Positions 8,344-53,997 of a stretch of DNA of 64,000 nt are shown here, one piece after another. This DNA comes from a plasmid. The notes under the pieces are model-generated. The model saw only the letters and a list, made by a program, of their open reading frames with translations. It was not told the DNA's origin and searched no databases. The stretch is from NCBI RefSeq assembly GCF_056746865.1, contig NZ_JBWKMP010000003.1. The stretch is one strand, 5' to 3'. The position numbers and the translations under genes were made by a program. Numbering within the stretch: position 1 is the first letter of the stretch; each line of letters opens with the position of its first letter.

Positions 8344-8575
8344 AAGTTTCCTTATGCAATTTATCCATCATGGGCGATAAGAATAGTAACACAAAAGATA
8401 TAAAACACAACAAAAATGTCTATAAACATAACTTCCTTGTTTGGTGGTTGCGTTTTTGGAAAAGCATTTCCGCATATGAAAAAACATCAGCATATGGTGA
8501 AAACAACGAAAAATTACTGATGAAATCACACACTGGATAAGCTGCCACGAAATCGGAAACCTTTTGCGGTGAATC

Positions 8576-28380: not shown

Positions 28381-28410
28381 TGTTAGCAAATTGATATTAA
28401 TTTTCTAATA
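28381..28410. promoter_or_regulatory. Operator-like palindrome TGTTAGCAAATTGATATTAATTTTCTAATA
   Basis: Dispersed motif family member upstream of the lpa-position gene. Confidence 0.45.
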
Positions 28411-28487
28411 CATCATGTTTTTGACAGTCTTCTCAGTATTAACAAGCTGATTATCATCCCCTCGGTCTTTTTCTATCCGGGGGATAA

Positions 28488-39667: not shown

Positions 39668-39940
39668 TTAAGGCTCACATTTCCAGATGGTATTCTGAAC
39701 ACCCGAACCGGGCGCAAGATTAGGGTTGGCGTTCGCGCTATGCTGATATACTGCTTTAGACTTCCCATATTGCTGACAGGCTTTATCTGCGGTTTTTTGC
39801 AGGCTATCCAGGCCATACCAACCATCTGACTGTATGCTTACCTTTTCACCGTCGTTGTATTGCACCATTGCACACCCAGATATAGCCAGTATCGCACCGA
39901 CAATAACGCTTTTCCATAAAACTCTATGCAACATATACAA
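39668..39940 (-). CDS. Putative lipoprotein
   Basis: Signal peptide with lipobox LAISGC. Confidence 0.55.
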
Positions 39941-39979
39941 AAATCCCCTCTGTGAATTGAGGGGATTTTAGCATGGTGA

Positions 39980-40615
39980 TCAGATATCGGCCTTATTCGG
40001 AATTTTATCAGCCACCAGCGGCAATAAAGCCTTCGCCATTTCATGAACCAACATGGCATCAATGACGCCTAGCGTATGGCCCGGTTTAATGTTTAATGCC
40101 GCCTCAAGATGACTCCTTTCCAGGCCGCTTTTCTCGGCTTGTTTATGACGATCTGGTGTAATAACTTCGCCCAAAACGCGGCTAATTTTTTCTCGTAATT
40201 GCTGGGTGCCAGCACACTTGATCGCTGTATCGTGGAGACGGTTAACCAGTTCGCGATAAACATGCGGCTTAATGCGGATACGTTCACCGGTGACGCCCTT
40301 TCCTGGCGCTGGCACCGAACTATCCGGATAGTTGCCAGCCTCGTAAGCTACCCGCAGCCAGTGCATGAATGTTTCAGTGGACACACAACCACAGTCCACA
40401 TCGATTTTTCCGCGTTGCTGTTCCAGCCACTGCTCAAAATTCAATCTACACGTATTACTTTCATGTTGCTCTTTTTGTCTCAAGGCCAGCATCTGCTGGG
40501 CTATTTCCAATACTTCATCTGCCGTATATCCAGCACCGTGACCATACATTTCGATACGGGAAATAATCTCTGATATACGCTCTTCAGTGATTCTGGTCAT
40601 TTCTTTTTGCGCCAT
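39980..40615 (-). CDS. Hypothetical protein sharing a ~45-aa segment with the C-terminus of the DUF4406 fusion
   Basis: KPHVYRELVNRLHDTAIKCAGTQQLREKISRVL versus APHIYRELVNALRDIAAVYHGTEQLRERLAHTI in 52539-53150. Confidence 0.5.
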   Translation of the reverse strand: MAQKEMTRITEERISEIISRIEMYGHGAGYTADEVLEIAQQMLALRQKEQHESNTCRLNFEQWLEQQRGKIDVDCGCVSTETFMHWLRVAYEAGNYPDSSVPAPGKGVTGERIRIKPHVYRELVNRLHDTAIKCAGTQQLREKISRVLGEVITPDRHKQAEKSGLERSHLEAALNIKPGHTLGVIDAMLVHEMAKALLPLVADKIPNKADI

Positions 40616-40968
40616 TTCTTTTCACATTCCTTAGTCCATTTTTCAATGTTCATTTTGGCAATATCAGTCATTCCATCACCTAAGAAATACTTTTTCCGGT
40701 ATGTCTTGCACTTAAACCACACTACAACAGCCACCAGCCAGAAAATAAAAGGCCATACAGCAATACCAACGACAGCCGCGATAAAGCCCAATAGCCATAA
40801 ATGAAGCTCTCCAACTTCTGTTTCCGGCAATATTCTTAAAGAATTAAACAGCAGGCTGAACGAATGGTCGTATGCATTGGCGGTATAAGACATGCAATCC
40901 ATATAATTAAAGTCATAGCCTGCGGCTGCCGCCCATAATGGGCGGTCAAGAAAATGTTTTAGTGTCAT
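40597..40968 (-). CDS. Hypothetical membrane protein
   Basis: Two or three hydrophobic helices, basic C-terminus. Confidence 0.45.
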   Translation of the reverse strand: MTLKHFLDRPLWAAAAGYDFNYMDCMSYTANAYDHSFSLLFNSLRILPETEVGELHLWLLGFIAAVVGIAVWPFIFWLVAVVVWFKCKTYRKKYFLGDGMTDIAKMNIEKWTKECEKKWRKKK

Positions 40969-40977
40969 TATATAAAT

Positions 40978-41271
40978 TTAAGGTTCAGACCAGTTATCTT
41001 CAATAGCAATGCTTAATCTTTGTAGCCATTCTGCTAATTTCAGCATTGCTTCTCTTTCGCTTAAACCACGAGGAAAATCATCAAGCGAAATTGTTGGCTT
41101 GAATCCCCCGCAATTATCCATTTCAACTGTCAGATTTTGTTCCAGCACGGTATTTCTTACGCGGCTATTGTGCCGAAGCAAATATACTGAGCGTGATTTA
41201 TTGGTTTTGTGGTCTAGCTTATATTCGGTAAGTATCATCTGGCTTTTGCCATGATTATTACCTCTCCACAT
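40978..41271 (-). CDS. Hypothetical protein (start trimmed to the internal ATG with RBS)
   Basis: ATG (MWRGNN) preceded by tgaggtaag; the longer 129-aa ORF-track version overlaps an upstream small ORF. Confidence 0.4.
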   Translation of the reverse strand: MWRGNNHGKSQMILTEYKLDHKTNKSRSVYLLRHNSRVRNTVLEQNLTVEMDNCGGFKPTISLDDFPRGLSEREAMLKLAEWLQRLSIAIEDNWSEP

Positions 41272-41278
41272 ACTTACC

Positions 41279-41401
41279 TCACTTAATAAAACAACTCCAT
41301 GCGTAGTTGATGATTTTTTCCCACGTAATATAAATCTGCACTCCGGCAGTAAAACCAAAGCCAACAATTGCTGAAAAAATCAAAACATTTACTTTTGACA
41401 T
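41279..41401 (-). CDS. Small hydrophobic peptide (40 aa)
   Basis: MSKVNVLIFSAIVGFGFTAGVQIYITWEKIINYAWSCFIK; below the ORF-track cutoff; stop lies next to the start of 40978-41271. Confidence 0.3.
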   Translation of the reverse strand: MSKVNVLIFSAIVGFGFTAGVQIYITWEKIINYAWSCFIK

Positions 41402-41449
41402 TATAAATTTTCTCTCGGTGTCGTAGGTGATAGCACCATAATTGATAAT

Positions 41450-41683
41450 TTAGTGAGTTAGCAGTTCCATTTTTTTGATGATTTCCGCATGAGCATCATC
41501 GTTATCAACACTTAGCTCGTTTAATGCTTCTCGCACTACATCAACTTCTTCAGGCTGAAAGAAGTCGTCGCGGTAATCACCAAATAGAACCGAAACCAGC
41601 CTGCCACCAGCAACATCAAGATTGGCGCTAACAGGTGGCTCTTTGCCATCCTCAAATTCGACTACAAAAGTTAATTTTCCCAT
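41450..41683 (-). CDS. Hypothetical acidic protein (77 aa)
   Basis: ORF with conserved operon orientation. Confidence 0.45.
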   Translation of the reverse strand: MGKLTFVVEFEDGKEPPVSANLDVAGGRLVSVLFGDYRDDFFQPEEVDVVREALNELSVDNDDAHAEIIKKMELLTH

Positions 41684-41759
41684 CGTTACCCCCAGAAGAT
41701 AAAAATAGCGGCAATCGCCATAGCTACGCCTACAATCGCAAATGCTTCAGGCCAGCTTA

Positions 41760-42017
41760 TTACCTCACCTCCAGTCTCCATACCGCCTGACCAATCCGGC
41801 TGGCATGGGTATCTTTGGATACTGTTCCATCTTTAGCCAGCTCCATAAGAATTTTGCGCAAATCTGCCGAACGCCATTCTTCATCAGGAAATTCCTTCTC
41901 CATTGCCAACCGCAGATTCCAGGTTGCTATCGTGAATGGATATTCCCCGCCGAGAGCTTTCTCTTGCAGGGCAGCACGGGAACGTATCACCTGCAAAACC
42001 TTCTCTTTTACATCCAT
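41760..42017 (-). CDS. Hypothetical protein (start set at the ATG overlapping the upstream stop)
   Basis: Translational coupling with 42017-42715. Confidence 0.4.
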   Translation of the reverse strand: MDVKEKVLQVIRSRAALQEKALGGEYPFTIATWNLRLAMEKEFPDEEWRSADLRKILMELAKDGTVSKDTHASRIGQAVWRLEVR

Positions 42018-42715
42018 CATTTTGCCTCCTGCGGCGGTTCTGGTAGCGGCATCCAGTGTGATGGTATCCACGACGCACCAGGTATTACCCACCCATCATT
42101 AGCGTCAGGATGCCCCGGGATGTAAGTCGCCCATTTCATTCGCCAGTCACCTTTCCTGTCAAACTCCCTGGCAACAAGAACGGCTGTTTTGGTATCCGGC
42201 ATTCGCTCACTACAGCTTATCCAACTATCCGGAATTACCGGATAGTTGCCCGACAGCTTGTTCAACTTGTAAGTCTGGCTTACAGGTTTGGCACCATGAA
42301 GCATGGCGTCGCTCCGCTCTATGCCATCCAGCGCGATTCGCAGTGCCTGAATTGTGGTAGAGCTATCGTTTGGGGCTATTCCATATCGCTCGAATACAGC
42401 TAAATGGTTGCGCATAATCTCAGGCGTAAGCTCTTTGTAAGCATAAGCAAGAGACTCTGATGCATTATCCGGCACAACCGACGCAAGCGCGGCAGCATAA
42501 ACAGGAATAACGTCCACTTGCTCTTTATTGCTTTCATCCGTTAAAGCCCAGAATAATTTCCCGGCCGGATGTTTGAAAATATAAGCAATTGGTTCTGCTT
42601 CCAGCGATGCCAGAGCAATTTCATACGACCGTCGCTCAATATTGTCTCGCACGTCCAGGCTGCTGATACGCTCTTTGATTTCTTTAATCAGTTCTTTGTC
42701 GGTTAAAGTGGTCAT
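42017..42715 (-). CDS. DUF551-like protein
   Basis: C-terminal ...DGWVIPGASWIPSHWMPLPEPP resembles the DUF551 C-terminal motif common in enterobacterial prophages. Confidence 0.5.
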   Translation of the reverse strand: MTTLTDKELIKEIKERISSLDVRDNIERRSYEIALASLEAEPIAYIFKHPAGKLFWALTDESNKEQVDVIPVYAAALASVVPDNASESLAYAYKELTPEIMRNHLAVFERYGIAPNDSSTTIQALRIALDGIERSDAMLHGAKPVSQTYKLNKLSGNYPVIPDSWISCSERMPDTKTAVLVAREFDRKGDWRMKWATYIPGHPDANDGWVIPGASWIPSHWMPLPEPPQEAK

Positions 42716-43406: not shown

Positions 43407-43595
43407 TCACTCTCCTTTAGTGCGCAAGTGGTTTTTCCAGCGGTTTTGCGCCGCGCTGGGCTTTTTGCAAAAACCACAATCCATCATCCCGTAATATTTC
43501 ATCAACCCCATCCGTCGGTTGCTGAGTCTCACCCACTGCCAGACGCCAGGAGCGTTTCTACGAACTAACAGAATCTTTGCTTTACGGTTTTTCAT
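43407..43595 (-). CDS. Small basic protein, copy 1 of a tandem pair (MKNRKAK...)
   Basis: Shares N-terminus MKNRKAK and the DNA block ttacggtttttcat with the upstream copy. Confidence 0.3.
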   Translation of the reverse strand: MKNRKAKILLVRRNAPGVWQWVRLSNRRMGLMKYYGMMDCGFCKKPSAAQNRWKNHLRTKGE

Positions 43596-43768
43596 CTTAC
43601 AGCGTACCCTTTCTTCCGCCTGTTCTGTGACGCAGTAGGCTTACGCTTTGCGGCAAAAGCCACCTGACCAAATGGATGGAGTACCGCTATCTTATGGTTG
43701 CTAATAACCAGCTCCACCACACGCACAGGTCGCTGTAAAAAAAGTCGTTTTGCCTTACGGTTTTTCAT
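43592..43768 (-). CDS. Small basic protein, copy 2 of a tandem pair (MKNRKAK...)
   Basis: 58 aa, stop overlaps the start of copy 1 (ATGA). Confidence 0.3.
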   Translation of the reverse strand: MKNRKAKRLFLQRPVRVVELVISNHKIAVLHPFGQVAFAAKRKPTASQNRRKKGYAVR

Positions 43769-43940
43769 CGCTTTGCTCTCCTGCGTCTCTTTGCTGCTCG
43801 TCGTGCCGCTGCAATACCGGTATGGCGGCGCTTTGGTGCCGGGATGATGTTGTCAGCCATCAGGACATACGGCTTTGCAATTAGCGCAGAAGCCCAAAAA
43901 CGAGTCGGGTACGGTAACAAGCCGATACATGCCACACGCA

Positions 43941-44693
43941 TTACTCACCTCCTTTGATGCGAATGCCTGCGGCGCGGATTGCAGCGATGACTTCAGAAAC
44001 TTTGTATGCCATTACCGTTTGGTAATCATCGTGAAAATCTGTTCGATGAAGCATGCTGCTACGTTCCGGGAGCGATATTTCCCGAGCATCCAGTTCCTTA
44101 ACGCGTTCCTCCAGTTCGTAGACCCTGCATTGTTCTCTATCATCAATCAGATATACCCCAAGACATTCGCTTTCTACCCAACCGCCAAAATCATGATCGT
44201 AACGCTCACATGAAAACTCACCGTCACCGTCCTTTGTTGGAATGGTGTAACTATCTAATGGGCCACCATATGTCGGCACATTTCCCAATGTTGGATGCTC
44301 AATCCACATGAAAAATGCACGTCCGGTTATTGGGCAAATATCTGGCCGCCATTGGTTACGAACAGCCTTGGTTTCGGATAATTCTTCAGCGTGTTGTTTT
44401 ACTTCCTCAAGCTCAACTCTCAGCTTCCCTACCGTTAGCGCAATATCCTCGTTCTCCTGATCGCGGCGTTTTATGTATTGCTGGTTTCTTTCCCGTTCAT
44501 CCAGCAGCGCCAGCACGGTTTCTGGTCCGGTCAGAAATTTGAAGGCGTTGAGCGCATCAATATCCACACCGTAATCTTTAAGTTCCTGTTCACTTAACAA
44601 ATCATCATCAGCTGGCAACATTAACAGGCGTTCCATTGCTGGAATTGCACGTTCCGCCGCCTCACGCAGTGCCTGGTAATTAATTTCGCTCAC
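43941..44693 (-). CDS. ead/Ea22-like family protein
   Basis: Contains [37 protein letters not shown] and C-terminal [10 protein letters not shown], shared with 50855-51529. Confidence 0.55.
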   Translation of the reverse strand: MSEINYQALREAAERAIPAMERLLMLPADDDLLSEQELKDYGVDIDALNAFKFLTGPETVLALLDERERNQQYIKRRDQENEDIALTVGKLRVELEEVKQHAEELSETKAVRNQWRPDICPITGRAFFMWIEHPTLGNVPTYGGPLDSYTIPTKDGDGEFSCERYDHDFGGWVESECLGVYLIDDREQCRVYELEERVKELDAREISLPERSSMLHRTDFHDDYQTVMAYKVSEVIAAIRAAGIRIKGGE

Positions 44694-45352
44694 TGGTTGC
44701 CTCCTTTGCGAAGCTGGGCAGCAAAGTCAACTAACCACTCAGTCATTTCAACCTTCCCTACCAGGTCGGAACCAGGGTGCATACAGCAATCACTCTGCGC
44801 CGCTTTGAAATCCTTACACTCATATTCTTTGGCCACCAGATTTTTTGCAGCTTCTATAGCAGCATCCACCCCCTGCGCCCGCACTTCAGCCAGAAAAGCA
44901 TCGGTAGCTGGAGTTTCGCTGTGGTGTAGGGCATCGTTGATAATCATTGCAGCAACACCAGCCTGCCCTGCATCCGTGACCGACACATGCTCAAGAGTTA
45001 CGGCCATTGCGTGTTTCAGCCCAGCGTTCTCTGCCACCAGCGCAGCGATATTAGTCTCAAGCTCTGAAATTCGGCACGTGGCATCAATATTTGTGTCCTC
45101 CAAGCACTTAATTTCACCAAGCAGCTCCAGTGCAACCTTTGGGTTGAACGCGGCAACATGACGAGCGTTGTTCTCTGCATTTTTCTGTCCATCAAAGCCG
45201 GTCCATTTGATAACGTCTTCACATCGTTCATCACCGGGCGTGTGCACCGCATAAGTACCAGTATCCGTCGAAATAAATGCGACCCATTCGTCTGGTGTTG
45301 CCTTTTCTGCCGCCTCACGCAGTACCTGATAGTCAATTGTCATTCTCGCCAT
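44690..45352 (-). CDS. ead/Ea22-like family protein
   Basis: [14 protein letters not shown] block and C-terminal FAAQLRKGGNQ shared with paralogs. Confidence 0.5.
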   Translation of the reverse strand: MARMTIDYQVLREAAEKATPDEWVAFISTDTGTYAVHTPGDERCEDVIKWTGFDGQKNAENNARHVAAFNPKVALELLGEIKCLEDTNIDATCRISELETNIAALVAENAGLKHAMAVTLEHVSVTDAGQAGVAAMIINDALHHSETPATDAFLAEVRAQGVDAAIEAAKNLVAKEYECKDFKAAQSDCCMHPGSDLVGKVEMTEWLVDFAAQLRKGGNQ

Positions 45353-45966
45353 CCTTCACAGTTGTAATCACTACAGCCTTCAAAATCATATGGGCTGTAC
45401 TGCCAGGTTATTTTTCCGCAATGCGGACAATTCCAACGCACCTTCCCGCTTCGCGACTTCTTTCTTCTGTTCTGCTCTTTCAACCAGTCAGGCATGATCA
45501 AACCTGCGCCCTGAACCATTGTTCTGCGGTTAAAGTTATTGATATTGAACGTCCGGCGCTTTGCTGCATCAGCAATGGAAAATGGCAACCAAACTATTCC
45601 TGGTTCGTTTTTGTTGGCGACGCTAAAGATGGTCGCTTTACTGAAGTCATCTGTTGGCAATCCACCGTGTTGAAGCCAGTAAACATCGTTGCCGTTCCAG
45701 CTACCTTTTTTGTAGGCCACATACGCAGTGCAATCTGACTCAATCAGGCTTTCTGTAGGGATGTACTGGCAATCAACGTGCCACACAGCCATTGCATCCA
45801 CGCTATCAGCGCAAACAGGCTGATCGATATCTCGCCCACAATTCCAGGCTTTTTGGGCTTCTTCCAGCGTGTAAACATGAGCGCGATCGATATCAGAGCT
45901 ATAACCATTGCCGTTATGGCAATGGAATGAGGCGTTATTACCCACAGTTTCACGCAAGCACATCAT
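45340..45966 (-). CDS. Hypothetical protein with a C-terminal zinc-ribbon-like Cys cluster
   Basis: CPHCGK...C..C motif; start trimmed to an internal ATG. Confidence 0.4.
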   Translation of the reverse strand: MMCLRETVGNNASFHCHNGNGYSSDIDRAHVYTLEEAQKAWNCGRDIDQPVCADSVDAMAVWHVDCQYIPTESLIESDCTAYVAYKKGSWNGNDVYWLQHGGLPTDDFSKATIFSVANKNEPGIVWLPFSIADAAKRRTFNINNFNRRTMVQGAGLIMPDWLKEQNRRKKSRSGKVRWNCPHCGKITWQYSPYDFEGCSDYNCEGWRE

Positions 45967-45980
45967 GTAAAAACGGTTAC

Positions 45981-46220
45981 TCACTGGTTGCCTCCTTGGC
46001 GGAGTTGCGCTGCGATGCATGAAAAAAAAGACTCCCGAGTGTGACAGTTAAGAGCTGGTGCGAACGCCGCGTTAAGAACGGCGGCATCACAGCCGTCATC
46101 AATATAGAGCGCAATTTTTTTCTCCAGGCGCGCTTTGGCTTCCTGCAACTGCATACCCCGGCACGCACGCGGGATATAATCAGCAATTTGAGCGATAGCT
46201 TTTTCGTTCTGTTTAAACAT
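45981..46220 (-). CDS. Small protein carrying the Ea22-family C-terminal motif (AAQLRQGGNQ)
   Basis: Motif shared with 44690 and 49817. Confidence 0.4.
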   Translation of the reverse strand: MFKQNEKAIAQIADYIPRACRGMQLQEAKARLEKKIALYIDDGCDAAVLNAAFAPALNCHTRESFFSCIAAQLRQGGNQ

Positions 46221-46416
46221 GCTTCACCTCGATAGGCTTGATGGTGTCTAACAGCAGTCGGCGGCGCGTATTTTCTGCAAAATGGCGGCGTCCAGTTTCT
46301 TTGTGGTAAAACTCGTTTTTGCCGACGACCCACATCCGCTCTGTTTGGTGCAGTTTTTTTACCTTCGGGCCATCTTTGGTGATCACGGTACCGGTATGGG
46401 TTTTTACGATTGTCAT
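46213..46416 (-). CDS. Hypothetical small protein
   Basis: 67-aa ORF. Confidence 0.3.
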   Translation of the reverse strand: MTIVKTHTGTVITKDGPKVKKLHQTERMWVVGKNEFYHKETGRRHFAENTRRRLLLDTIKPIEVKHV

Positions 46417-46499
46417 GCCACTACCTATTCGAACAGATGAACGAGACAGGCCGATGCTCGTCCACCTGAAAAACTGACGATTTGATGCATACTCACGGT

Positions 46500-47228
46500 T
46501 TATTCCTGAATGCGCTTAAACTCGATTACCCACACCCAGGGATTAGCGTTCCAGCTTTCTTCACCATAGATGGATTCCCACAGGCGCTGGAACGCAACCT
46601 TGGCCATTGCGAAATCCCCCTTGGGAGTAAGGAATGTTCCCGGGTGATCAGGAAGCAAACTTCCAGCAGGCGGAACGCCCTCAGCCCTTGCATCGCATTC
46701 GCTGATATCGTTCAACCGTTCAACGCGCACGTTGGTAATTTCCAACAGAATGCGTGATGCCCATCGCGGCATGTGAATTGATGGACGCCACCCACCATCA
46801 AACTTTTCATTCACAGTGTGAGGTTTCCAGTCGGCATCATCGGGTATCGACCATAAGCCGTAATCACCAGGTTTTTGCTCGCAACTGGCCCGATAAATCC
46901 TTGCTGCGTTCTTCTCATCGCCACGACAAAGGTTGTCGTTCCAGTCCACACTGCAACCATCCTCATTGCCTAATATCGCCCATGTTTCACGAACCCAAAT
47001 TCGATCGCCGACGATACCAAATGGGCAATTGAAAACACTGCTTACACCATCAGCCCCGTACCACTGAAAACCTGCACCAATTTTTCTAACCATCACTGGT
47101 GCTTCTGGACCAACTTCCGCAGGCTGATTTTTCATTATCCGCCGCGTCTGCGTTTTCCTTCCTTCGAGGATGGCCCGGACCATCTCATCGTTAAAAATCA
47201 TCCCGCGTTCTTTCATTTTTTGATCCAC
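46500..47228 (-). CDS. ASCH-domain-like protein (start may be the internal MIFNDEMV)
   Basis: EMVRAILEGRKTQTRR resembles the ASCH GxKxxExR signature. Confidence 0.45.
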   Translation of the reverse strand: MDQKMKERGMIFNDEMVRAILEGRKTQTRRIMKNQPAEVGPEAPVMVRKIGAGFQWYGADGVSSVFNCPFGIVGDRIWVRETWAILGNEDGCSVDWNDNLCRGDEKNAARIYRASCEQKPGDYGLWSIPDDADWKPHTVNEKFDGGWRPSIHMPRWASRILLEITNVRVERLNDISECDARAEGVPPAGSLLPDHPGTFLTPKGDFAMAKVAFQRLWESIYGEESWNANPWVWVIEFKRIQE

Positions 47229-47232
47229 TCCA

Positions 47233-48228
47233 TCAGTTATTGAACGTGATCACTCCGCGCTCGATGGCGAAGTCGAAAAGCTGGTTGGCGGCTACGTAAA
47301 GGCGTATGCCATGTGCTTTTTCCCATGCCCGGACATCGTTTTCTGCGCTTCTGGCGCATTCATCGCAAAGAGGAACGGCCCAGCGATCGTGTTCGTTTAA
47401 CGAGCGGGCGCGGTACATGAACGGGTGATTAACTTTGCCTCCGCATCCGATGCACGGACGAGAAATCACAAACCGGAGATAAGCCGGGCTTTTACCGAGA
47501 ACCGCTTTTGGTCGGCGCATATACAGCAGGCCGGAATCCTCATCTACAGACAGGTTGACGATCTGCTCTGCGGTTATGTCCACCAGCTCACGGGTGCTGT
47601 GCTCCCAGGTGATATCCGATTCTTTCAGTGTGCCGGTAGGGATTTCCTGTTTTGGCTGACAAAATGCAATGCGACCGGCTTCATCTGGCAGCTCGTCTTT
47701 CAGATTCCGGCGAATGGCCCAAAAAGTGAGTTCAACCATGCTCAGATCGCGTTCTGGCGGTAGTTTTAACTCGCTCGCAGCCCAGTTCATAACCCAGTTG
47801 GCACGATTCAGGGATAACTGGTCATCCAGCTTGCCGTACCCCTTCATCATGTATTCCGCATCATGCTTCCAGCACAGGCGAACGGCAGAGCCGTTATAGA
47901 AATGAGTGGTTAGCTGGTGGCTGCAATCGCGCTTATCGTGCGCCTGGCAATCGTGGATATTGGAACTTACCCAATGAACAAGCGAATCTTCACCGCCTAA
48001 TGCGTTAAATACGCGCTCGCTTTGAAAAAATGCTTTCAGAGACTGGTTGGCAACCAGCGAATAGTTCAGATCCACTACGCCATCTGGCGTGTTTTCAGCC
48101 TGTTCGCGCGGAAGTGGAGAGATAATGAAACGGCGACCTGCGCCAATGTAGTTGCTGGTGGGCTTGTCTACCGGAAAGACAGCCACACCAGCTCCGTTTA
48201 CGAAATGAGGTGTGATTATTGCACTCAT
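47233..48228 (-). CDS. Hypothetical 331-aa protein with C-terminal Cys-rich motifs
   Basis: CIGCGG...C..C pattern; no confident family. Confidence 0.45.
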   Translation of the reverse strand: MSAIITPHFVNGAGVAVFPVDKPTSNYIGAGRRFIISPLPREQAENTPDGVVDLNYSLVANQSLKAFFQSERVFNALGGEDSLVHWVSSNIHDCQAHDKRDCSHQLTTHFYNGSAVRLCWKHDAEYMMKGYGKLDDQLSLNRANWVMNWAASELKLPPERDLSMVELTFWAIRRNLKDELPDEAGRIAFCQPKQEIPTGTLKESDITWEHSTRELVDITAEQIVNLSVDEDSGLLYMRRPKAVLGKSPAYLRFVISRPCIGCGGKVNHPFMYRARSLNEHDRWAVPLCDECARSAENDVRAWEKAHGIRLYVAANQLFDFAIERGVITFNN

Positions 48229-48270
48229 AATGTATACCGACTCTGTTTTGTTCCGAGCGGTAAAATAATA

Positions 48271-48300
48271 TGTTAGAAAATTAAAATCAATATTCTAACA
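48271..48300. promoter_or_regulatory. Operator palindrome TGTTAGAAAATTAAAATCAATATTCTAACA
   Basis: Inverted half-sites of the dispersed motif, upstream of the minus-strand operon. Confidence 0.55.
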
Positions 48301-48332
48301 CGGTTTTGAGTGCATAAACGATGTGTTCAGGA

Positions 48333-49019
48333 TTACGGCTGGCCTCCCTTCACCTGCTTTAGCGTCAGATTTCCGCAAAAAACCGCGCCAGTGTCTATGT
48401 AGTGCTGGTTCCAGAAAGATTTCGGGCTGTTTACTGGCGTATGCCCGAAAATAAAGCTATCTGCACCAGTGATCATTCCACCAACACCATCAACCGCGTC
48501 ATAAAATCGCTCACGCCGCCAGGTAACATTGAGATCGCTAACAGGTTTACCAAACTGGTATTCGTTATCAGGATAGTCGGCATGGGCTATAACGATAGTT
48601 TCATGCCCGGTGTTCAACTCAATGATATAGGGTAAACGTCTTACCAGCTCCACCAGCGCCCTGGCTAATATTTCCCGATCAGCGTCCAGCATGAAGAACC
48701 ATTGGCCGCCATTCATTAGCCAGTTATTCACGTTGCCTGCGGGGCTTAACGCATCGATCATTAATCGCTCGTGGTTTCCCATAACCGACCGAAACCAGGG
48801 CATCTGCAATAGCTCCAAGCATTCAACATTTTCGGTGCCGCGATCGATAAGGTCGCCAACCGATATCAGTAAATCCTGTGTCGGGTCAAAGTCCACACGA
48901 TGAAGTTCAGACATCAATCTGGTGTAGCAACCATGCAGATCACCAACAACCCATATGTTTCTGTAGCCTGAACCATCAATACGGCCATATAAATTCACTT
49001 CATGCAGCGCCTGGGTCAT
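48333..49019 (-). CDS. Ser/Thr protein phosphatase (calcineurin-like metallophosphatase)
   Basis: GDLHGC ... GDLIDRG ... GNHE motifs. Confidence 0.75.
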
Positions 49020-49327
49020 GCGGCAACCTTCTCCCGCAGCCAGATACAAACCGGGCCATCTTCAGTGTCATGAATAGAGCCAACAAACCATCCTTCGCCC
49101 TCTGGTCGCTCTGGTTCCCAGGCGGCAATATCGGGACCATCTGCGTCCAGATTAAAATGATCTTCATCCATACTGCGAATAGTCCACTGAAGATTATTAT
49201 CCTTCATCCAGGCGTCAAATTCCTCAGTGGATATATATTCACGACCTGCGCAAAACTTTTCATATTCCGGATGTGTCCAGCAGCCATATTCATCACGTTC
49301 TACCGGCATTTCTTTAATGATGCTCAC
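49016..49327 (-). CDS. Hypothetical acidic protein
   Basis: Coupled ORF. Confidence 0.45.
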
Positions 49328-49548
49328 TCTTCATCCTCCAAGTCGGCAACGGCCTCCATCACATCAGAACCGCGAATAACCTCAAAAGCACGGCAGGCCA
49401 TTTCAAACACCTGTTGTTCTTGCGGATGCGGTGACTCCCAATACTTAAAACCAGGTCGATGCTCGTAACCCAACATGGAATAAAAATCGCCAGCAAGTTC
49501 AATCGCTGCATCAACAAGTTCGCGATTTGTCATCGTCTGTTCTGTCAT
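49324..49548 (-). CDS. Hypothetical protein
   Basis: Coupled ORF. Confidence 0.45.
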   Translation of the reverse strand: MTEQTMTNRELVDAAIELAGDFYSMLGYEHRPGFKYWESPHPQEQQVFEMACRAFEVIRGSDVMEAVADLEDEE

Positions 49549-49820
49549 TTTGTTTTCTCCTGTCTGAACATCACTATCATCAGGTCGCCTTTTGTCGCTA
49601 TCCTGGCTGTTGTACCTGGTTCAATGCGGCTAAGCTCAAATGCGTCATAGAACGCTTCTAATGCCTTCTGGCGTAGTTCCTGTTTGCGCCGTTTTTTCCA
49701 CTGTTTTAGGAAAATGGAACCCAGCCATCGCCATGTACGGGACATGATGTAAAGCCAACCGAGAAGTGCCAGACCGGTATTTAGGAGCGTATCGATCGTT
49801 ATTGTCGTGTCGATATTCAC
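49545..49820 (-). CDS. Hypothetical membrane protein
   Basis: N-terminal TM segment. Confidence 0.45.
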   Translation of the reverse strand: MNIDTTITIDTLLNTGLALLGWLYIMSRTWRWLGSIFLKQWKKRRKQELRQKALEAFYDAFELSRIEPGTTARIATKGDLMIVMFRQEKTK

Positions 49821-50584
49821 TGGCTGCCTCCTTTGCGAAGCTGGTCGGCGAACAAACGTACACTAGACGCTTCACTGCGTAGAAACTTAACGGCATAATC
49901 AAAACCACCTCGTTCTGCGTCGTCTGCTCCGTTGTCGAGGTTATCTGCGTACATCTCTACCCCCTGCGCACGTACTTCAGCCAGGAAAGCATCGGTGGCT
50001 GGGGTATCAACACGGATACTGTCGCGCAAGATGAAAAATGCATTGAGCATTCCAGTCTCTGGCACTTCATCCTGATGCTTCTCATACGCATCAAGAGCCT
50101 TCATCATCTCAGCTCCGAATGGTTGAGGGTGCACAGACTTCAGCTCCGCATTCTCCGCCGCCAGCACCGCGCGTTCGCTCTCCAGTTCTGTAATGCGCCG
50201 TCTTGCAGCATCCAGTTCAATCGACAATTTTCCCAACTGCTCTTTATGCTTCTTGTATTCCTGATATGCGTGCCAAGACTGACCTTTGCGCACACTATCC
50301 GTGATATCAGTAATCTGTTCTGGTGTTAGCGTGGTCAGTGGCTGTGCTGGGAAAATCAGCACTTTCCCAGCATCCCAATCAAAACCCACCTGAATTGACT
50401 GAACCTCAACTGATGGTGTTGAACCGATGCGACCAGGCGAATGAACAACGATCGTTACATCCATATCGCGACGATGGCTGTGGTTGTTGGACAAAATACG
50501 ATTCACCAACTCCGAGAATTTGGAAAATTTCATGCTGATTCCCTTTGCTCTTCCTGGATAATGTTGTTGCAATCTTTCACGCAC
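49817..50584 (-). CDS. ead/Ea22-like family protein
   Basis: [14 protein letters not shown] block and C-terminal [11 protein letters not shown]. Confidence 0.5.
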
Positions 50585-50853
50585 TCGTTGCAGATGAAAA
50601 CGTTGTCCCCGGCAATTAACTTTTTAACGGTGTGCTGGGATTTGTTGCAGAAGCTGCAATAAAGCGTTGGACTGGCTGATATGGATGGTGCGCCAGATGT
50701 CAGCCGCGCGATGTCGTTCTTGCGACGCAATATCACACGGCTGCACTCGACCAGCATCTCCGGGGATATATCCTCCTCCGTGGCGAGCGCCTCCAGACGT
50801 TCGAGCAAGCGAAATACTTTTTCCTGGGTGATTGCAGAATGCGATGTGGTCAT
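50530..50853 (-). CDS. ClpX-type zinc-finger domain protein
   Basis: [36 protein letters not shown] matches the ClpX N-terminal zinc-binding domain pattern. Confidence 0.5.
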
Positions 50854-50854
50854 C

Positions 50855-51529
50855 TCACTCTCCTTTGATGCGAATGCCAGCGGCACGGGAGTCATTCCAT
50901 CGCTTTACTTCTTCACGAATTACGTCAATGCATTCTTTCGAATCCATTAGGTAATCTTCATCAAAAAGCCTTTCCTGTTCGTTTTCTATCGCAACAATGA
51001 TTGCTTCAACTAACTTTTGTGCCTGAGAACCACTTTCTAACTCTGCAATGCGCTTCTCTGCGGCTTCCAGCTTCTCGCGCATATCGTCAACGTACTCGAC
51101 CAGAGATCCGCCAGCAGGAATTTCGCACTCCTCGACCAGTTGGAAGTAGATATCAGCTGCGGCCCGTGTGTTGCTATGCCTAGCGTCGCCCATCTCACCT
51201 TCACGAAGAGCATCGCGTTCGGCGGTAAGATTGGCTATTTTGCTGTCTTTGCCTTCAAGCTCAACGCGCAGCTTCCCTACCGTTAGCGCAATATCCTCGT
51301 TCTCCTGGTCGCGGCGTTTTATGTATTGCTGGTTTCTTTCCCGTTCATCCAGCAGCGCCAGCACAATGTGTGGCGTTATCAAGGACTCAAATTCGGCAAC
51401 AGCTTGCTCACCTCGCTTGTAATTCTTAATCCCACCTAAATCTTTCGCGTTCTGTGCCGCCTCACGCAGCGCCAGTGTGTCGATGTCGATGTCGATGTTG
51501 CTCATTGTGCCTCCTCGATTTCGTCCCAT
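50855..51529 (-). CDS. ead/Ea22-like family protein
   Basis: Same conserved block as 43941-44693. Confidence 0.55.
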
Positions 51530-51735
51530 TCCACCCAGGCATTCTCTCCATCAGCATCGATTTCACCTTTGTGACCGCATTTGGAACAAACGGCCTCATC
51601 ACCCGCCCACAAAGAATCTTTGGTTACCGACCATCCTGTTACCCTGGCTTTGCCGTGCTGGCACCTAGGGCAATCATCAAGCCATTCGACTTCGACCGTT
51701 GAAGGACCAAATCCATGTTCAGTTCGGATGCTCAT
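51502..51735 (-). CDS. Small zinc-ribbon protein
   Basis: CPRCQHG ... CSKCGHKG. Confidence 0.4.
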   Translation of the reverse strand: MSIRTEHGFGPSTVEVEWLDDCPRCQHGKARVTGWSVTKDSLWAGDEAVCSKCGHKGEIDADGENAWVEWDEIEEAQ

Positions 51736-52235
51736 GACTGAACTCCTTTGCGAATCTGTTCCGCCCATTCTTCAAGGGATTTCTCCGCATATTCACCGGA
51801 CAGGCCATCAATCGGATGCGGTTCATTAGCCAACTCTTCTTTCGCTGACAAAATCATGCGTGTAACGTCGAAAACTTCACGCAAAGACTTATTGATAAAT
51901 CCGTGATTGAACGCAGCAGCAAGACGGCTTGCGGTGTAGTTAATCCCCTCGTTGCGTGCCTCCGCACGTATTTCAGCCAGGAAAGCGTCGGTGGCTGACA
52001 TATTTCCTGTTGCCTTCATGGCCTTCAAAATAACCAGAACGCCATCTTGCCCAACCAACTCGGAGATAATCTCAGTGTTGTCGCCAACAACCTCACAGAA
52101 TGCCTGAACAGCTTTACGAGCAAGTGCATTCTCCGCCGCCAGCGCCGCGCGCTCTTTCTCAAGTCGGGAAATTTCCGTTACATACTCAGCGTTACGCTCT
52201 GCCAGTTGTGCGGGCGTTAAACCTTCAGACTTCAT
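51732..52235 (-). CDS. ead/Ea22-like family protein ([12 protein letters not shown] block)
   Basis: Paralog of 44690 and 49817. Confidence 0.5.
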   Translation of the reverse strand: MKSEGLTPAQLAERNAEYVTEISRLEKERAALAAENALARKAVQAFCEVVGDNTEIISELVGQDGVLVILKAMKATGNMSATDAFLAEIRAEARNEGINYTASRLAAAFNHGFINKSLREVFDVTRMILSAKEELANEPHPIDGLSGEYAEKSLEEWAEQIRKGVQS

Positions 52236-52542
52236 GCACTCTCCTTTCGAAATAAACGTACTGATTAATCATGCCCAGGGGCATTTCGAACTTTTCTGCG
52301 ATCTCACGGCGGGGAACGCCACACTGATGAAGCTGCCGCGCCAGCTCTATATCGCTCTGCCGGTATTTGGCTGACTGGTGAAAGTCACCTTTCAGAATCA
52401 TGCTGATCCGCAATTGCCGCGCTTTAGTCCTGACAGCACCACCGGTACGCCCGATCAGTCTCCCAATACCCTCGACTGTCATAGTCCCGGCGCACTGGCG
52501 GAGTATCATGATTTCTGCCCTTCCCCATCCCCGCCAGCTCAC
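52225..52542 (-). CDS. Small HTH protein (sigma-70 region-4-like)
   Basis: C-terminal HTH-like RREIAEKFEMPLGMINQYV. Confidence 0.4.
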   Translation of the reverse strand: MSWRGWGRAEIMILRQCAGTMTVEGIGRLIGRTGGAVRTKARQLRISMILKGDFHQSAKYRQSDIELARQLHQCGVPRREIAEKFEMPLGMINQYVYFERRVHEV

Positions 52543-53150
52543 GCAGAACTCCTTCTAACCAAAAGAACGCCATCTTCAGAAACAACGTTGCAGGACTTCA
52601 GGTAATTCATTGCCTCTTTCGGTAATGGATTCTTTGGATCGGCGCTTGCCAGGGATTTCGATAACCTCATGATAAATTTGATCATTACCTTCTGACGGAG
52701 CTTGTGCTCATGGGATGCAGACAGGTAATAGGAAATGGTATGGGCTAAACGCTCACGAAGCTGTTCTGTGCCGTGATATACAGCAGCGATATCACGCAGT
52801 GCATTGACCAGTTCCCGGTAAATATGCGGAGCAACCTGGCATTCAATGTTGGTTGGTGACTCATAAATTACATTCAGCCCCAGCTTTTGAGCCAGCTCGT
52901 GCTCTGCACGAGCGCCAACTGATTCCTCCCACCCCTTGAGCAAATAGACCGCATTAGCCGAACGCACCATTGCAAGGCAAATATCCATGTATTCGCTCTG
53001 GCAGAGGCCAGCAGGTAACAGCGCCGGATTCAGAACAATATGCCCTACCTCCATCAGCTCTTTTGCTTTCGAAAAAAACGCTGTGCGGTTGTAGTCGGGA
53101 TAACCAGTCATCGGACCCGCGATGTAAATTTTCATAATGCGTTTTGACAT
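52539..53150 (-). CDS. DUF4406 (nucleoside 2-deoxyribosyltransferase-like) domain fused to a C-terminal domain shared with 39980-40615
   Basis: MKIYIAGPMTGYPDYN ... LLKGWEESVGARAEHELAQKLGLNV fits DUF4406; C-terminal APHIYRELVNALRD segment is paralogous to 39980-40615. Confidence 0.5.
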   Translation of the reverse strand: MSKRIMKIYIAGPMTGYPDYNRTAFFSKAKELMEVGHIVLNPALLPAGLCQSEYMDICLAMVRSANAVYLLKGWEESVGARAEHELAQKLGLNVIYESPTNIECQVAPHIYRELVNALRDIAAVYHGTEQLRERLAHTISYYLSASHEHKLRQKVMIKFIMRLSKSLASADPKNPLPKEAMNYLKSCNVVSEDGVLLVRRSSA

Positions 53151-53345
53151 CAAAGTTTCCCCAGGAACGTTACGCAAAAGTTAATGAGAGCAAAGAGTTC
53201 AATGCCCAGCTCAAACAACGCCAGGACAGTGAAAAACAGGGCATATAGCAACCCAATTTCTGTACCGGATTGCTGGTGGATTGCACTTATTGCGACAAGC
53301 ATCATGACCTCCTGATATAGCGTCTGAAAAAAGTATCTTCATTTT

Positions 53346-53377
53346 GTGTTAGAAAATCAATTTTGATTTTCTAACAC
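53346..53377. promoter_or_regulatory. Perfect operator palindrome GTGTTAGAAAATCAA-tt-TTGATTTTCTAACAC
   Basis: 15-bp arms are exact reverse complements; sits between the divergent minus-strand operon and the ref-like gene. Confidence 0.6.
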
Positions 53378-53421
53378 TTTTGATCAACCATAGCGGCGAT
53401 GTAGACAAACCGGGTATTTCT

Positions 53422-53997
53422 ATGAAGCAAAGCTATTGGGAGAAACAGACACAAAAAGCCCTGCAAAAACTGGCTGATCCGAAATGGCGGGAGGAACAAA
53501 GGGCAAAGCGTCTTCAGCAAGCTCAACGCCAGCAGCAGCGTGCGCGAGAAAAAGCCGCATCGCCTGAATATCGGCAAAAGAAAATTGAAAAAGCGAAGCA
53601 ATATGAACAGCGAAGAAAAGAGAAGGCCGCTTCTGCTCCTGTCAAAAAAACTCGCGCGTCACGCGGCCTGAAAGGCAGAACACTCACAGCAGATGAGCGC
53701 CGGATACAAACTGCCATCGGTGCTCTCCCCTGCATTGCCTGCCATATGCACGGACAGCATAGCCCTGTGGTATCCCTGCACCACATCTTCGGGAGAACAG
53801 CAGAAAACGCGCATAAATACGTCCTCCCTTTGTGTAAATGGCACCATCAACACGCAGCGCCAGCAGAGATCCGCGAGCAATACCCCTGGTTGGTTCCTGT
53901 TCATGCTGATGGAAAAATAGGCGGCAAAGCAGATTTCAGGCGGCACAATGCTGATGAAATGACGTTGTATCAGATGGTGACTGAATTAATAAATTAA
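53422..53997 (+). CDS. Ref-like HNH-type nuclease with a basic disordered N-terminal region
   Basis: Lys/Arg/Glu/Gln-rich N-terminal ~80 aa followed by Cys/His cluster CIACHMHG ... HHIFG ... CKWHH; same architecture as P1 Ref as I recall it; start could be TTG at 53380. Confidence 0.45.
   Translation: MKQSYWEKQTQKALQKLADPKWREEQRAKRLQQAQRQQQRAREKAASPEYRQKKIEKAKQYEQRRKEKAASAPVKKTRASRGLKGRTLTADERRIQTAIGALPCIACHMHGQHSPVVSLHHIFGRTAENAHKYVLPLCKWHHQHAAPAEIREQYPWLVPVHADGKIGGKADFRRHNADEMTLYQMVTELIN

Follow-up and report, generated by a model that had tools for sequence, protein, structure and literature searches.

The locus at positions 43941 to 52235 of this plasmid raises the question of what six neighboring minus-strand genes resembling ea22 are, and how they came to lie together. 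A preliminary description treated them as one expanded ead/Ea22 paralog family, and all six open reading frames, as well as all of the shared blocks, were located where it had placed them, the blocks also being present as DNA repeats. Within the window (the whole 64,000-nucleotide stretch that was analyzed), the region is on balance best read as an early accessory operon under repressor control, carried by a D6-like, P1-related Escherichia coli phage-plasmid and corresponding to the lambdoid exo-xis or P22 'ea' region. It contains two Ea22/EaD-type and three EaE/Oad2-type mosaic genes, a tail that acts as both coupling cassette and mosaic joint, and three genes (B, D, and F below) that may have an anti-defence role.

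The operon spans approximately 13 kb of the minus strand (~53.3 to 39.9 kb). A perfect inverted repeat with 14-bp arms (GTGTTAGAAAATCAA, a 2-nt gap, and the complement; 53346..53377), located in the divergent region between the first gene of the block and a ref-like gene, is probably, judged from the sequence, an operator for a repressor that overlaps the promoter of the operon. With up to three mismatches allowed, the window contains 17 copies of the half-site versus 2.1 expected, and a search of the window for the P1 C1 operator consensus gave 0 hits. A second operator-like inverted pair lies within the block, upstream of the DUF968 gene (48270..48301), and a strong intrinsic-terminator-like hairpin on the minus strand (39940..39969) is the probable operon end.

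All genes described here are on the minus strand. The first encodes a 51-aa hydrophobic protein (53150..53305; GGAGG ahead of the start), and a homologous 156-nt coding sequence is annotated at the same place in plasmid NZ_LR890273 and in phage D6 (orf88). It is followed by a DUF4406/nucleoside 2-deoxyribosyltransferase-like protein (52539..53150; Pfam DUF4406, 1.6e-34; phrog_5781, phrog_355) and a small DNA-binding-type protein (52225..52542; phrog_323; RefSeq name of the homologue, 'DNA-binding protein'), whose gene ends in AAAGGAGAGTGC followed by the ATG of F. Between F and E lies a 77-aa zinc-ribbon protein (51502..51735; phrog_4446, matched from residue 11 of a longer ORF); its real start codon, the ATG at 51735, overlaps the F stop codon (ATGA), and its RefSeq homologue is 234 nt long. 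A stand-alone ClpX-type C4 zinc-finger protein of 107 aa (50530..50853; Pfam zf-C4_ClpX, 2.2e-17; NCBIfam ClpX N-terminus; phrog_6797 from residue 15) starts at the ATG at 50853, 1 nt past the stop codon of E and behind its AAAGGAG. Downstream of D are a DUF4752 membrane protein (49545..49820; Pfam, 1.6e-42), whose GTG start overlaps the D stop codon (GTGA), a NinI/Ppp-like Ser/Thr phosphatase (48333..49019; Pfam Metallophos; phrog_246, 1.4e-105), a DUF968/PdcB-like HNH protein (47233..48228; Pfam DUF968, 1.7e-44; phrog_96), and a phrog_874 protein (46500..47228). The phosphatase and ClpX-type assignments made earlier, and those to DUF968, DUF4752, and DUF4406, were borne out; the ASCH-like assignment of the phrog_874 protein had no Pfam match and rests on the RefSeq name of close homologues ('ASCH domain-containing'). 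A 214-aa phrog_2457 protein with a C-terminal zinc ribbon (45340..45984) starts at the GTG at 45984, overlapping the stop codon of C. Beyond A, three very small basic ORFs in tandem (58, 58, and 62 aa; 43407..43941; phrog_13831, 1.1e-41) each start over the preceding stop codon, the first after AAAGGAGG of A, and the operon runs on past the six genes to an EaA-like DUF551 protein (42017..42715; P22 EaA, 5.9e-12; Pfam DUF551).

The six genes are not one family. Based on sequence matches, A and E are of the lambda Ea22/P22 EaD type, and the P22 EaE/HK446 Oad2 type comprises F together with the C-terminal half of B and that of D. Pfam Ead_Ea22 matches only three of the six. A (43941..44693; lambda Ea22, 8.7e-27), whose GTG start overlaps the B stop codon, has its own C-terminal domain and at least 8000 relatives, routinely named ead/Ea22-like. 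E (50855..51529) matches lambda Ea22 (5.7e-26), P22 EaD (2.5e-16), and Pfam Ead_Ea22, ends in AAGIRIKGE, and likely starts at the ATG at 51505 (MSNIDID...), overlapping the zinc-ribbon stop codon. B (44690..45352; tail AAQLRKGGNQ) is a chimera in which the two types are fused, with an Ea22-type N-terminus (IDYQVLREAAEKA) and an EaE/Oad2-type C-terminal half (Pfam Ead_Ea22, 2.4e-24; Oad2, 7.7e-10; EaE, 2.2e-7). D (49817..50533; ORF to 50584) joins a phrog_6026 N-terminal domain to an EaE/Oad2-type half (Oad2, 7.4e-12; PHROGs 6026, 368, 492, and 614); its real start codon, the ATG at 50533, overlaps the ClpX-type stop codon, and its RefSeq homologue is 717 nt long. F (51732..52235; 167 aa; P22 EaE, 3e-21; tail AEQIRKGVQS) has a coiled-coil helix, an 11-aa motif, and as its best PHROG phrog_614 (1.3e-54), which is also the best PHROG of Oad2. 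C (45981..46220) is a 79-aa protein whose sole PHROG match is phrog_1344, and it carries the tail cassette AAQLRQGGNQ, as do 13 C-type genes of viral contigs.

All-versus-all blastp supported paralogy for A and E (1.7e-22), B and D (3.7e-12), B and F (1e-7), and D and F (2e-5), but not for C, which aligned with the other genes only through the some 10 residues of its tail (E-values 0.02-0.04). A and E share an identical 37-aa block (a 119-nt DNA repeat, 94% identity) and, as a pair, end in a different type of tail, AAGIRIKG(G)E (a 29-nt repeat, 93%). A 13-aa block is exact in B and D and variant in F, also as a DNA repeat, and A, B, and E have in common the N-terminal motif I(N/D)YQxLREAAE, again repeated as DNA. 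The two types have the same architecture, with an N-terminal segment and a coiled-coil helix followed by one or two exchangeable segments in the middle or at the C-terminus and by a short end that is conserved.

Since A and E are clearly of the Ea22 type, the proteins of both types could, instead of acting against defence, be developmental regulators biasing toward lysogeny, as reported for Ea22 of lambda and Phi24B, with the copies tuning establishment or maintenance of the plasmid-prophage. Deletion of ea22 shortens the latent period, increases burst size, and decreases lysogenization (PMC7093339), and the block is probably repressor-controlled and early-expressed, as its predicted operator suggests. 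The published phenotype is 'prolysogenic', and two-hybrid screens yielded no partner (PMC7093339, PMC10834534), both of which speak against an anti-defence role. However, the literature gives Ea22 neither a mechanism nor a partner for a regulatory role. Whole-ORF deletions may also be polar, because the gene downstream has its ribosome-binding site and start codon within the 3' end of ea22, as in P27 and apparently also in Phi24B; more survivors with slower lysis would also fit an interplay with host abortive systems; and Oad2, the only family member with a mechanism described at the biochemical level, inhibits immunity. A regulatory role is therefore considered unlikely, though worth keeping in view.

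The tails that had been described as a conserved protein motif (QLRKGGNQ in B, QLRKGGSQ in D, QLRQGGNQ in C, QIRKGVQS in F) are also a DNA repeat: the 18-nt cassette AAAGGAGGCARCCAGTGA occurs three times in the window at up to two mismatches versus 0.00 expected. Its AAAGGAG(G) falls on the Lys-Gly codons; after a spacer of fixed length comes a GTG or ATG overlapping or abutting the stop codon, so that each such gene contains both the ribosome-binding site and the start of the gene that follows (translational coupling). Among 75 distinct tails of this type, taken from related genes, all had TGA as the stop codon and a GTG or ATG at -4 that opened a reading frame of 30 codons or more; Lys was AAA in 74 and Gly was GGA in 73, versus 22.5% GGA among gene-body Gly codons. 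A search with the bare cassette found coupling at 101 of 105 junctions, and at 67 of the 105 the next gene is of the Ea22 type. In GenBank, phage P27 has a ribosome-binding site annotated exactly at the K-G-E codons of its ea22, and the published puzzle of an Ea22 "+GE motif of unknown significance" is plausibly explained by such an embedded site. The conservation of the tail is thus largely at the nucleotide level, as a Shine-Dalgarno sequence plus the overlapping start of the next gene.

Alternatively, the tails may be conserved as protein, for instance as a C-terminal docking peptide or degron for a host factor such as ClpX, with DNA conservation secondary. The residues A-x-Q-(L/I)-R persist across 110 clusters at ≤50% identity (A in 99, Q in 101, and R in 107), the tail is only moderately less diverse in synonymous codons (0.00-0.13) than the ATDAFLAE motif (0.00-0.48), lambda Ea22 keeps its tail (...AGIRIKGE) without a coupled downstream gene, and the ClpX-type zinc-finger gene directly follows E. 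In an AlphaFold2 model of F (all-alpha; mean pLDDT 65 and pTM 0.31, low confidence), the last predicted helix ends with these A-x-Q-(L/I)-R residues, but the final four residues, after K163, are disordered. The last three tail residues vary freely (GNQ, GSQ, VQS, ADK, SSQ, AAL, and others) while the first-position G of the next codon, the TGA, and the overlapping start are kept; unrelated upstream genes have only ...KGG(N/S)Q in common, with identical DNA; and the tail Gly is GGA in 73 of 75. In divergent members, Glu replaces the tail Gly (LRQEAAQ and LRKEQGK, seen in protein sequences), and these codons could still spell a Shine-Dalgarno sequence. A motif acting purely as protein is accordingly quite improbable. 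The A-x-Q-L-R part does look conserved as protein and is modeled as helical, and protein and DNA constraints may coexist there.

The domain shuffling suggested earlier is real and can be measured. A three-way alignment placed a recombinant joint within the tail cassette of C (22 nt; 45979..46000, minus strand), upstream of which the DNA is of the plasmid NZ_LR890273 type and downstream of the Stx2c-phage type. Among 113 cassette junctions, 504 pairs had discordant flanks (one at ≥90% identity, the other at ≤45%) and 36 were concordant, in an ungapped comparison of phylogenetically related junctions whose counts are not independent events; there were 45 four-gamete quartets, and the genes that come after the tails belong to at least 34 families. 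Inside the genes, variable segments of 15, 12, and 6 types occur in 27 combinations, with four-gamete quartets for each segment pair. Mosaic joints thus fall at the cassette and at conserved internal motifs, with reassortment of segments and of entire genes between lambdoid prophages and plasmids of the P1/D6 type. The five Ea22/EaE-type genes were assembled by such exchanges and not by local duplication. From the modules in common inside 8.3 kb and from the five members detected by HMM, versus three in D6 and one or two in lambda, P22, and HK446, one could propose that the genes multiplied within this plasmid lineage through tandem or segmental duplication and then diverged. This is very improbable, given that the common DNA consists of short modules of at most 119 nt, that B, D, and F have different segment types at each of the three variable positions, that each sub-block has 98-99% identical relatives elsewhere (A, B, and the gene at 45340 in Stx2c phages; D, E, and F in NZ_LR890273), and that the joint between these two lineages is visible.

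For the proposed counter-defence role, there is one concrete lead, the homology of B, D, and F to HK446 Oad2, and the role itself would follow by analogy. Oad2 inhibits the abortive nuclease OLD of P2 by binding the OLD tetramer and blocking its activation, a function reported in a single 2026 preprint (bioRxiv 10.64898/2026.07.10.737580), in which an HK75 homologue 54% identical to Oad2 did not inhibit OLD. B and D are only ~33% identical to Oad2, and given the HK75 result, activity against P2 OLD itself is unlikely. The Ea22 and EaE proteins may be oligomeric coiled-coil scaffolds whose swappable segments bind proteins of the host or of rival prophages; by analogy with Oad2, B, D, and F would be expressed early and inhibit immunity proteins, whether OLD-like or of other kinds, several divergent copies would widen the target range, and the Ea22-type partners, often coupled or fused to EaE-type genes, might act in the same pathway. 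HK446 keeps a 20-codon Ea22 remnant after oad2. Prophage accessory regions often hold defence genes, and HNH/DUF968, phosphatase, and nucleoside-transferase-like genes are present, but that the block is a defence or superinfection-exclusion island guarding the host from other phages, and not a counter-defence or takeover operon, is scarcely credible, as PADLOC matched none of the 10 proteins scanned and the predicted operators suggest an operator-controlled operon like early lytic operons.

Compared with known systems, the backbone, previously called P1-like, is P1-related and more exactly D6-like, with 50 of 64 kb collinear with phage D6 at 75-96% identity. The block is made up of lambdoid early-left/exo-xis-type genes, as had been recognized, and 2.2 kb of it (43760-46000) matches Stx2c-converting lambdoid phages at 98.8% identity; classical lambdoid prophages contain only sub-blocks of it, without known housekeeping function. 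It is no novel graft, since smaller versions of it, with two or three such genes each, occupy the same position in D6, P7, and many ~90-kb E. coli plasmids, and the DUF968/PdcB-like gene has its counterpart in D6 orf98, annotated 'similar to P1 pdcB'. The families and the type of locus are therefore known ones, to which the present analysis adds a mechanistic clarification.

Six minus-strand ORFs between 43941 and 52235 were compared with one another and with the proteins that give the relevant families their names (lambda Ea22, P22 EaD, P22 EaE, and HK446 gp27, the OLD anti-defence protein Oad2). They are referred to as A (43941-44693), B (44690-45352), C (45981-46220), D (49817-50533), E (50855-51529, with a probable start at 51505), and F (51732-52235). 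All six ORFs and every motif quoted for them in the preliminary description are present, and the motifs are also seen as DNA repeats: a 119-nt block in A and E (94% identity), an ATDAFLAE block in B, D, and F, one tail in B, C, D, and F, and another type of tail common to A and E. All-versus-all alignment with blastp bore out the relationships between A and E (1.7e-22), B and D (3.7e-12), B and F (1e-7), and D and F (2e-5), while the match of C to the other five was confined to its last ~10 residues. The reading of the set as a single ead/Ea22 family did not survive in that form, as the ORFs comprise Ea22-type genes, EaE/Oad2-type genes, and the unrelated C; the term 'family' is defensible only in the sense of a mosaic superfamily, because at the looser PHROG level A, B, D, E, and F all have matches to phrog_368. 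The original observation is confirmed and its interpretation is partly supported.

A and E are of the lambda Ea22/P22 EaD type (lambda Ea22, 9e-27 and 6e-26, respectively) and contain all four elements of that architecture, namely a SEINxQALREAAE N-terminus, a coiled-coil block, a variable C-terminal domain (CTD), and an ...IRIKGE end, of which B has only the N-terminal motif. F is of the P22 EaE type (3e-21; tail AEQIRKGVQS, compared with AAQLRKGVQS in EaE), and the C-terminal halves of D and B are of the Oad2 type (7e-12 and 8e-10, respectively). Taken whole, B is a chimera of an Ea22 N-terminus and an EaE C-terminal half, D is a fusion of a phrog_6026 N-terminal domain to an EaE C-terminal half, and C matches phrog_1344 only. 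Three of the six proteins matched Pfam Ead_Ea22 (PF13935; best member 2.7e-29, B i-Evalue 2.4e-24); the two besides B are presumably A and E, in which case C, D, and F would be unmatched. Membership of the EaE/Oad2 family (phrog_614/492) was defined by homology extending from the coil through the ATDAFLAE(V/I)RA motif to the C-terminal end, which was found in F, D, and B and was lacking in A, C, and E. The phrog_614 profile, the best PHROG of both F and Oad2, scored 1.3e-54 with F, 8.3e-53 with Oad2, 3.4e-29 with B, and 4.3e-20 with D. The EaE/Oad2 profile has 699 clusters at 50% identity (E <=1e-10), and A has at least 8,000 relatives. None of the six proteins matched an NCBIfam family; among the 10 block proteins scanned, only a zinc-finger protein gave a match, to the ClpX N-terminus. 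A PDB sequence search with the EaE/Oad2 profile and with protein A gave no meaningful match. Identification of A with the biochemically studied Ea22 V3 of phage P27 was rejected, since the two proteins have different CTDs and resemble each other only in the N-terminal coil region and in the tail. In thousands of E. coli prophages and plasmids, the genes that go by the names 'ead/Ea22-like' or 'hypothetical' in fact fall into two families.

The C-terminal tail had been taken for a conserved protein motif; it is largely a DNA signal, a Shine-Dalgarno (SD) sequence with an overlapping start, although its A-x-Q-(L/I)-R part is also conserved at the protein level. The DNA of every tail reads ...CGC AAA GGA GGC AAC CAG TGA or ...ATC AAA GGA GAG TGA, with AAGGAG(G) located 5-7 nt before a GTG or ATG that overlaps the stop (GTGA, ATGA, TAATG) or comes one base after it. 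A junction was scored as coupled if an SD lay 5-8 nt 5' of a start overlapping or abutting the upstream stop, with an ORF following. These features were present in 6/6 window tails and, in related loci, in 75/75 tails of the QLRKG+3 type, 32/32 tails of the IRIKG(G)E type, and 101/105 junctions with a bare cassette (the short 3'-end DNA that holds the SD and the start of the next gene). Tail statistics were taken from 80 related viral loci. All 75 distinct QLRKG+3 tails end in TGA, with GTG (63) or ATG (12) at -4 opening an ORF of 30 codons or more. Lys is encoded by AAA in 74 and Gly by GGA in 73 of them, compared with a GGA share of 22.5% among the Gly codons of the gene bodies, and the three residues past Gly are variable (GNQ, GSQ, VQS, ADK, SSQ, AAL, and others). 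Unrelated upstream genes have only ...KGG(N/S)Q in common as protein, with identical DNA. Divergent family representatives, compared as proteins only, often have Glu in place of this Gly (LRQEAAQ, LRKEQGK), a change that is non-conservative in the protein and compatible with SD-like codons. The GenBank record of P27 annotates an RBS exactly at the K-G-E codons of its ea22. In an AF2 model of F (25-sequence alignment; mean pLDDT 65, pTM 0.31), the last helix stops at K163, leaving the final four residues disordered; A-x-Q-(L/I)-R, which is conserved in distant members, is helical in this model. The confidence of the model is too low to support a fold search. Synonymous diversity in the tail differed only modestly from that in the ATDAFLAE motif, so this test is not decisive alone. 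The 3' end of lambda ea22 (2848-2875 of the lambda record) keeps ATTCGCATCAAAGGAGAGTGAG, with GATCGG instead of GATGAC; because the following ATG has been lost, the lambda RBS cassette is a relic. The tails are best described as SD/start coupling cassettes, with coupling predicted from sequence and with part of the tail probably under constraint other than at the DNA level. The C-terminal '+GE' motif of Ea22 is on record as 'of unknown significance' (PMC7093339, PMC10834534), and two later Ea22 papers make no mention of it; the motif is plausibly the embedded RBS of the next gene. A 'protein tail' conserved among unrelated proteins can be a DNA-level signal and a recombination handle, which calls for caution in inferring motifs from phage proteins.

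First-ATG ORF calls were too long for several genes, the true starts overlapping upstream stops (GTGA/ATGA). Corrected minus-strand starts are GTG 45984 for the phrog_2457 gene (45340-45984), ATG 51735 for the zinc-ribbon gene, ATG 50853 for the ClpX-zinc-finger gene, and ATG 50533 for D, and they agree with PHROG match boundaries and with the RefSeq gene lengths of homologues. The ClpX-zinc-finger gene (50530-50853, minus strand) encodes a stand-alone C4 zinc-finger protein of 107 aa, junction-coupled to the Ea22-type gene E, and genes of this type are also found 3' of Ea22-type tails in other phages. The protein could act as a decoy for ClpX N-domain-dependent recognition of substrates or adaptors.

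Phage D6 aligned with 50,084 of the 64,000 window bases in one collinear series at 75-96% identity. Membership of the D6-like group was assessed as gene order collinear with D6 over structural, replication, and immunity genes, and on the collinearity found the window belongs to a D6-like, P1-related E. coli phage-plasmid; the records nearest to it are ~90-kb E. coli plasmids. The six ORFs lie in a long minus-strand operon that begins beside a divergent ref-like gene at ~53.3 kb and extends to a strong terminator-like hairpin (39,940-39,969). The corresponding D6 block (orf88-orf103) has the same orientation and likewise lies between the ref-like gene on one side and pmgU/humD on the other, and both blocks contain DUF4406, DUF4752, phosphatase, and DUF968 genes. 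D6, however, has three HMM-detected family members compared with five in the window and lacks approximately half of the DNA of the window block. In the window, the module formed by A, B, and the phrog_2457 gene originates from a Stx2c-type lambdoid phage. P7 (upf87.4-upf88.3) and P1 (ppp-pdcB region) contain reduced versions of the block. No public record holds at least 80% of 43,500-53,500 in one piece, yet pieces of it were found in 3,211 of the 5,426 complete genomes of E. coli, chiefly in chromosomes. The block is therefore a mosaic assembled from lambdoid accessory genes in wide circulation. A population study of D6-like plasmids (PMC6799933) does not discuss this block.

Several further genes were noted in the operon. 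It opens with a 51-aa hydrophobic ORF and a DUF4406/nucleoside 2-deoxyribosyltransferase-like gene (52539-53305, minus strand), both kept in D6, and it extends past the six ORFs to an EaA-like DUF551 gene (42017-42715, minus strand; P22 EaA, 6e-12), whose 3' end, encoding ...PPQEAK, again embeds CAGGAGG plus ATG, and then to several small ORFs within 39980-42100 (minus strand) that D6 lacks; nothing in D6 matches the segment 40341-42590. Between 43407 and 43941 (minus strand) are three tandem ORFs, tiny and very basic (62, 58, and 58 aa), each start overlapping the preceding stop; two of them, both with MKNRKAK at the N-terminus, are paralogs (E 2e-7), and the third, a full-length member of phrog_13831, is also found 3' of ...IRIKGGE tails in other phages. 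The Stx2c phage has an insertion of ~1.3 kb at the boundary between two of these ORFs. A PAPS-reductase-family gene present in the block of closely related plasmids is absent from the window.

Two tracts of different affiliation meet at C. The first (43,760-46,000) is 98.8% identical to a Stx2c phage and the second (45,979-46,433) is 98.7% identical to plasmid NZ_LR890273, and they overlap in exactly 22 nt, the cassette of C, with nothing else common there in a three-way alignment. An ungapped comparison of 120-nt flanks at 113 distinct bare-cassette junctions yielded 504 pairs with one flank at >=90% and the other at <=45% identity, compared with 36 pairs concordant on both sides. The flanks fell into 31 x 33 classes in 86 combinations, with 45 four-gamete quartets; because the comparison was ungapped and the sequences are related, these pair and quartet counts do not represent independent events. 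Within EaE/Oad2-type genes, 15, 12, and 6 discrete types could be distinguished for the segments between coil, ATDAFLAE motif, and tail; they occur in 27 combinations, and every pair of segments yields four-gamete quartets. B (0,0,1), D (3,6,3), and F (5,3,0) have no segment type in common, which excludes recent local duplication; their origin by duplication in situ was rejected on this ground and because sub-blocks are near-identical to two other lineages, with a recombinant joint. The families, their mosaicism, and the type of locus were already known. What is new is the split into Ea22-type and EaE/Oad2-type genes, the tail as coupling cassette and recombination joint, and one crossover inside a cassette; recent exchange, at 98.8% identity, between Stx-converting lambdoid phages and D6-type phage-plasmids is also documented.

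The P1 C1 operator consensus ATTGCTCTAATAAATTT had no window match at <=3 mismatches, and a P1 C1-controlled operon was accordingly not indicated. A different motif, GTGTTAGAAAAT(C/T)AA, was found at 17 window sites at <=3 mismatches (2.1 expected), which often form inverted pairs separated by 2 nt; the sites are at 53346-53377, 48270-48301, 24695-24726, and 28380-28411, with 9 further single sites. The motif probably serves the D6-type C1 repressor as its operator, and the sites would then mark out the regulon of that repressor. Judging from the operator-like palindromes at 53,346-53,377 and 48,270-48,301, the block would be expressed early.

The two families recur as neighbors: 67 of 105 cassette junctions open into an Ea22-type gene, as does B into A in the window. 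In HK446 (8450-8512), 3' of gp27/oad2, a GTG overlapping the oad2 stop opens a 20-codon Ea22-type remnant, VSKIDYQALREIAK... (VSKIDYQALREIAKHQRLTE*), which is the scar left by an earlier pairing of oad2 with ea22. B is itself a fusion of both types, and the Oad2 preprint mentions fusions to EaD/Ea22 (bioRxiv 10.64898/2026.07.10.737580). The pairing, the HK446 remnant, and the fusions suggest that the two families work together.

Reading the block as a defence island is disfavored, because none of the 10 block proteins scanned matched PADLOC-DB v2 at E <=0.01. Oad2 binds the P2 OLD tetramer and prevents tRNase activation; HK446 gp27 is the only protein for which anti-OLD activity is reported, a homologue of 54% identity being inactive (bioRxiv 10.64898/2026.07.10.737580). 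The targets of B, D, and F, with ~33% identity and different segments, are for that reason probably other than P2 OLD, and by analogy these proteins would be early-expressed inhibitors of the Oad2 kind with other specificities. The name 'Oad1' refers to an unrelated vibriophage inhibitor, which was set aside. As one of the two families now has a member of defined anti-immunity mechanism, B, D, and F are concrete candidates and OLD-family nucleases a concrete assay. A wider scheme is speculative and considered rather unlikely: SD/start cassettes and intragenic anchors would form an exchange system by which lambdoid prophages and P1/D6-type phage-plasmids trade inhibitor segments and genes, the three Oad2-like proteins and the Ea22-type partners coupled to them would make up a battery of several specificities directed at nucleases of the OLD family (ABC-ATPase/TOPRIM) or at other abortive-infection nucleases, each paralog acting against a different variant, and the 'prolysogenic' Ea22 phenotype would arise as a by-product, either of this activity or of polar effects on the genes coupled downstream.

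Experiments on lambda, Phi24B, and P27 have described Ea22 as a tetrameric coiled-coil protein with variable CTDs, a 'prolysogenic' deletion phenotype, and no known partner (PMC7093339, PMC10834534). In Phi24B (HM208303, ~2830-2845), the ea22 homologue vb_24B_6c ends in CAGGAGGTTAACCGTGGCTAA, with CAGGAGG, 6 nt, and GTG, and this GTG opens the frame of the downstream vb_24B_4c, whose annotated start is further upstream inside ea22. The arrangement in which an ea22-type gene carries the RBS and start of the next gene is present in P27 too, and apparently in Phi24B. Whole-ORF deletions of ea22-type genes may be polar for this reason, that of vb_24B_6c possibly among them; they may silence the next gene, and published phenotypes may need non-polar controls.

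With respect to known systems, A and E have in common with lambda Ea22 and P22 EaD the 37-aa coiled-coil block and the ...AGIRIKG(G)E end. Their C-terminal domains are unlike the solved CTD of lambda Ea22 and likewise unlike the P27 V3-type CTD, and they belong to a phage-plasmid, not to an integrated lambdoid prophage. Mosaic C-terminal domains of Ea22, with up to three variants per genome, have been published (PMC10834534). F and the C-terminal halves of B and D have in common with EaE/Oad2 the LAAENA coil, the (T)PATDAFLAE(V/I)RA motif, the QLRKG+3 end, and the same PHROGs (614/492/368), and the HK446 junction from the oad2-like gene into ea22 is the same as that from B into A. Identity of B, D, and F to Oad2 is, however, only ~33%, all three variable segments are of different types, and B and D have extra N-terminal domains. 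Lambdoid phage mosaics are reportedly marked by conserved linker or boundary sequences at module junctions, as in Susskind and Botstein's modular theory and in later comparisons of HK97, HK022, and HK620. Like those linkers, the window cassettes (17-27 nt) are short conserved gene-boundary sequences at novel joints. Unlike them, they have an identifiable function of their own, an SD with an overlapping start, and they appear as a protein motif because they sit in the coding sequence of the upstream gene.
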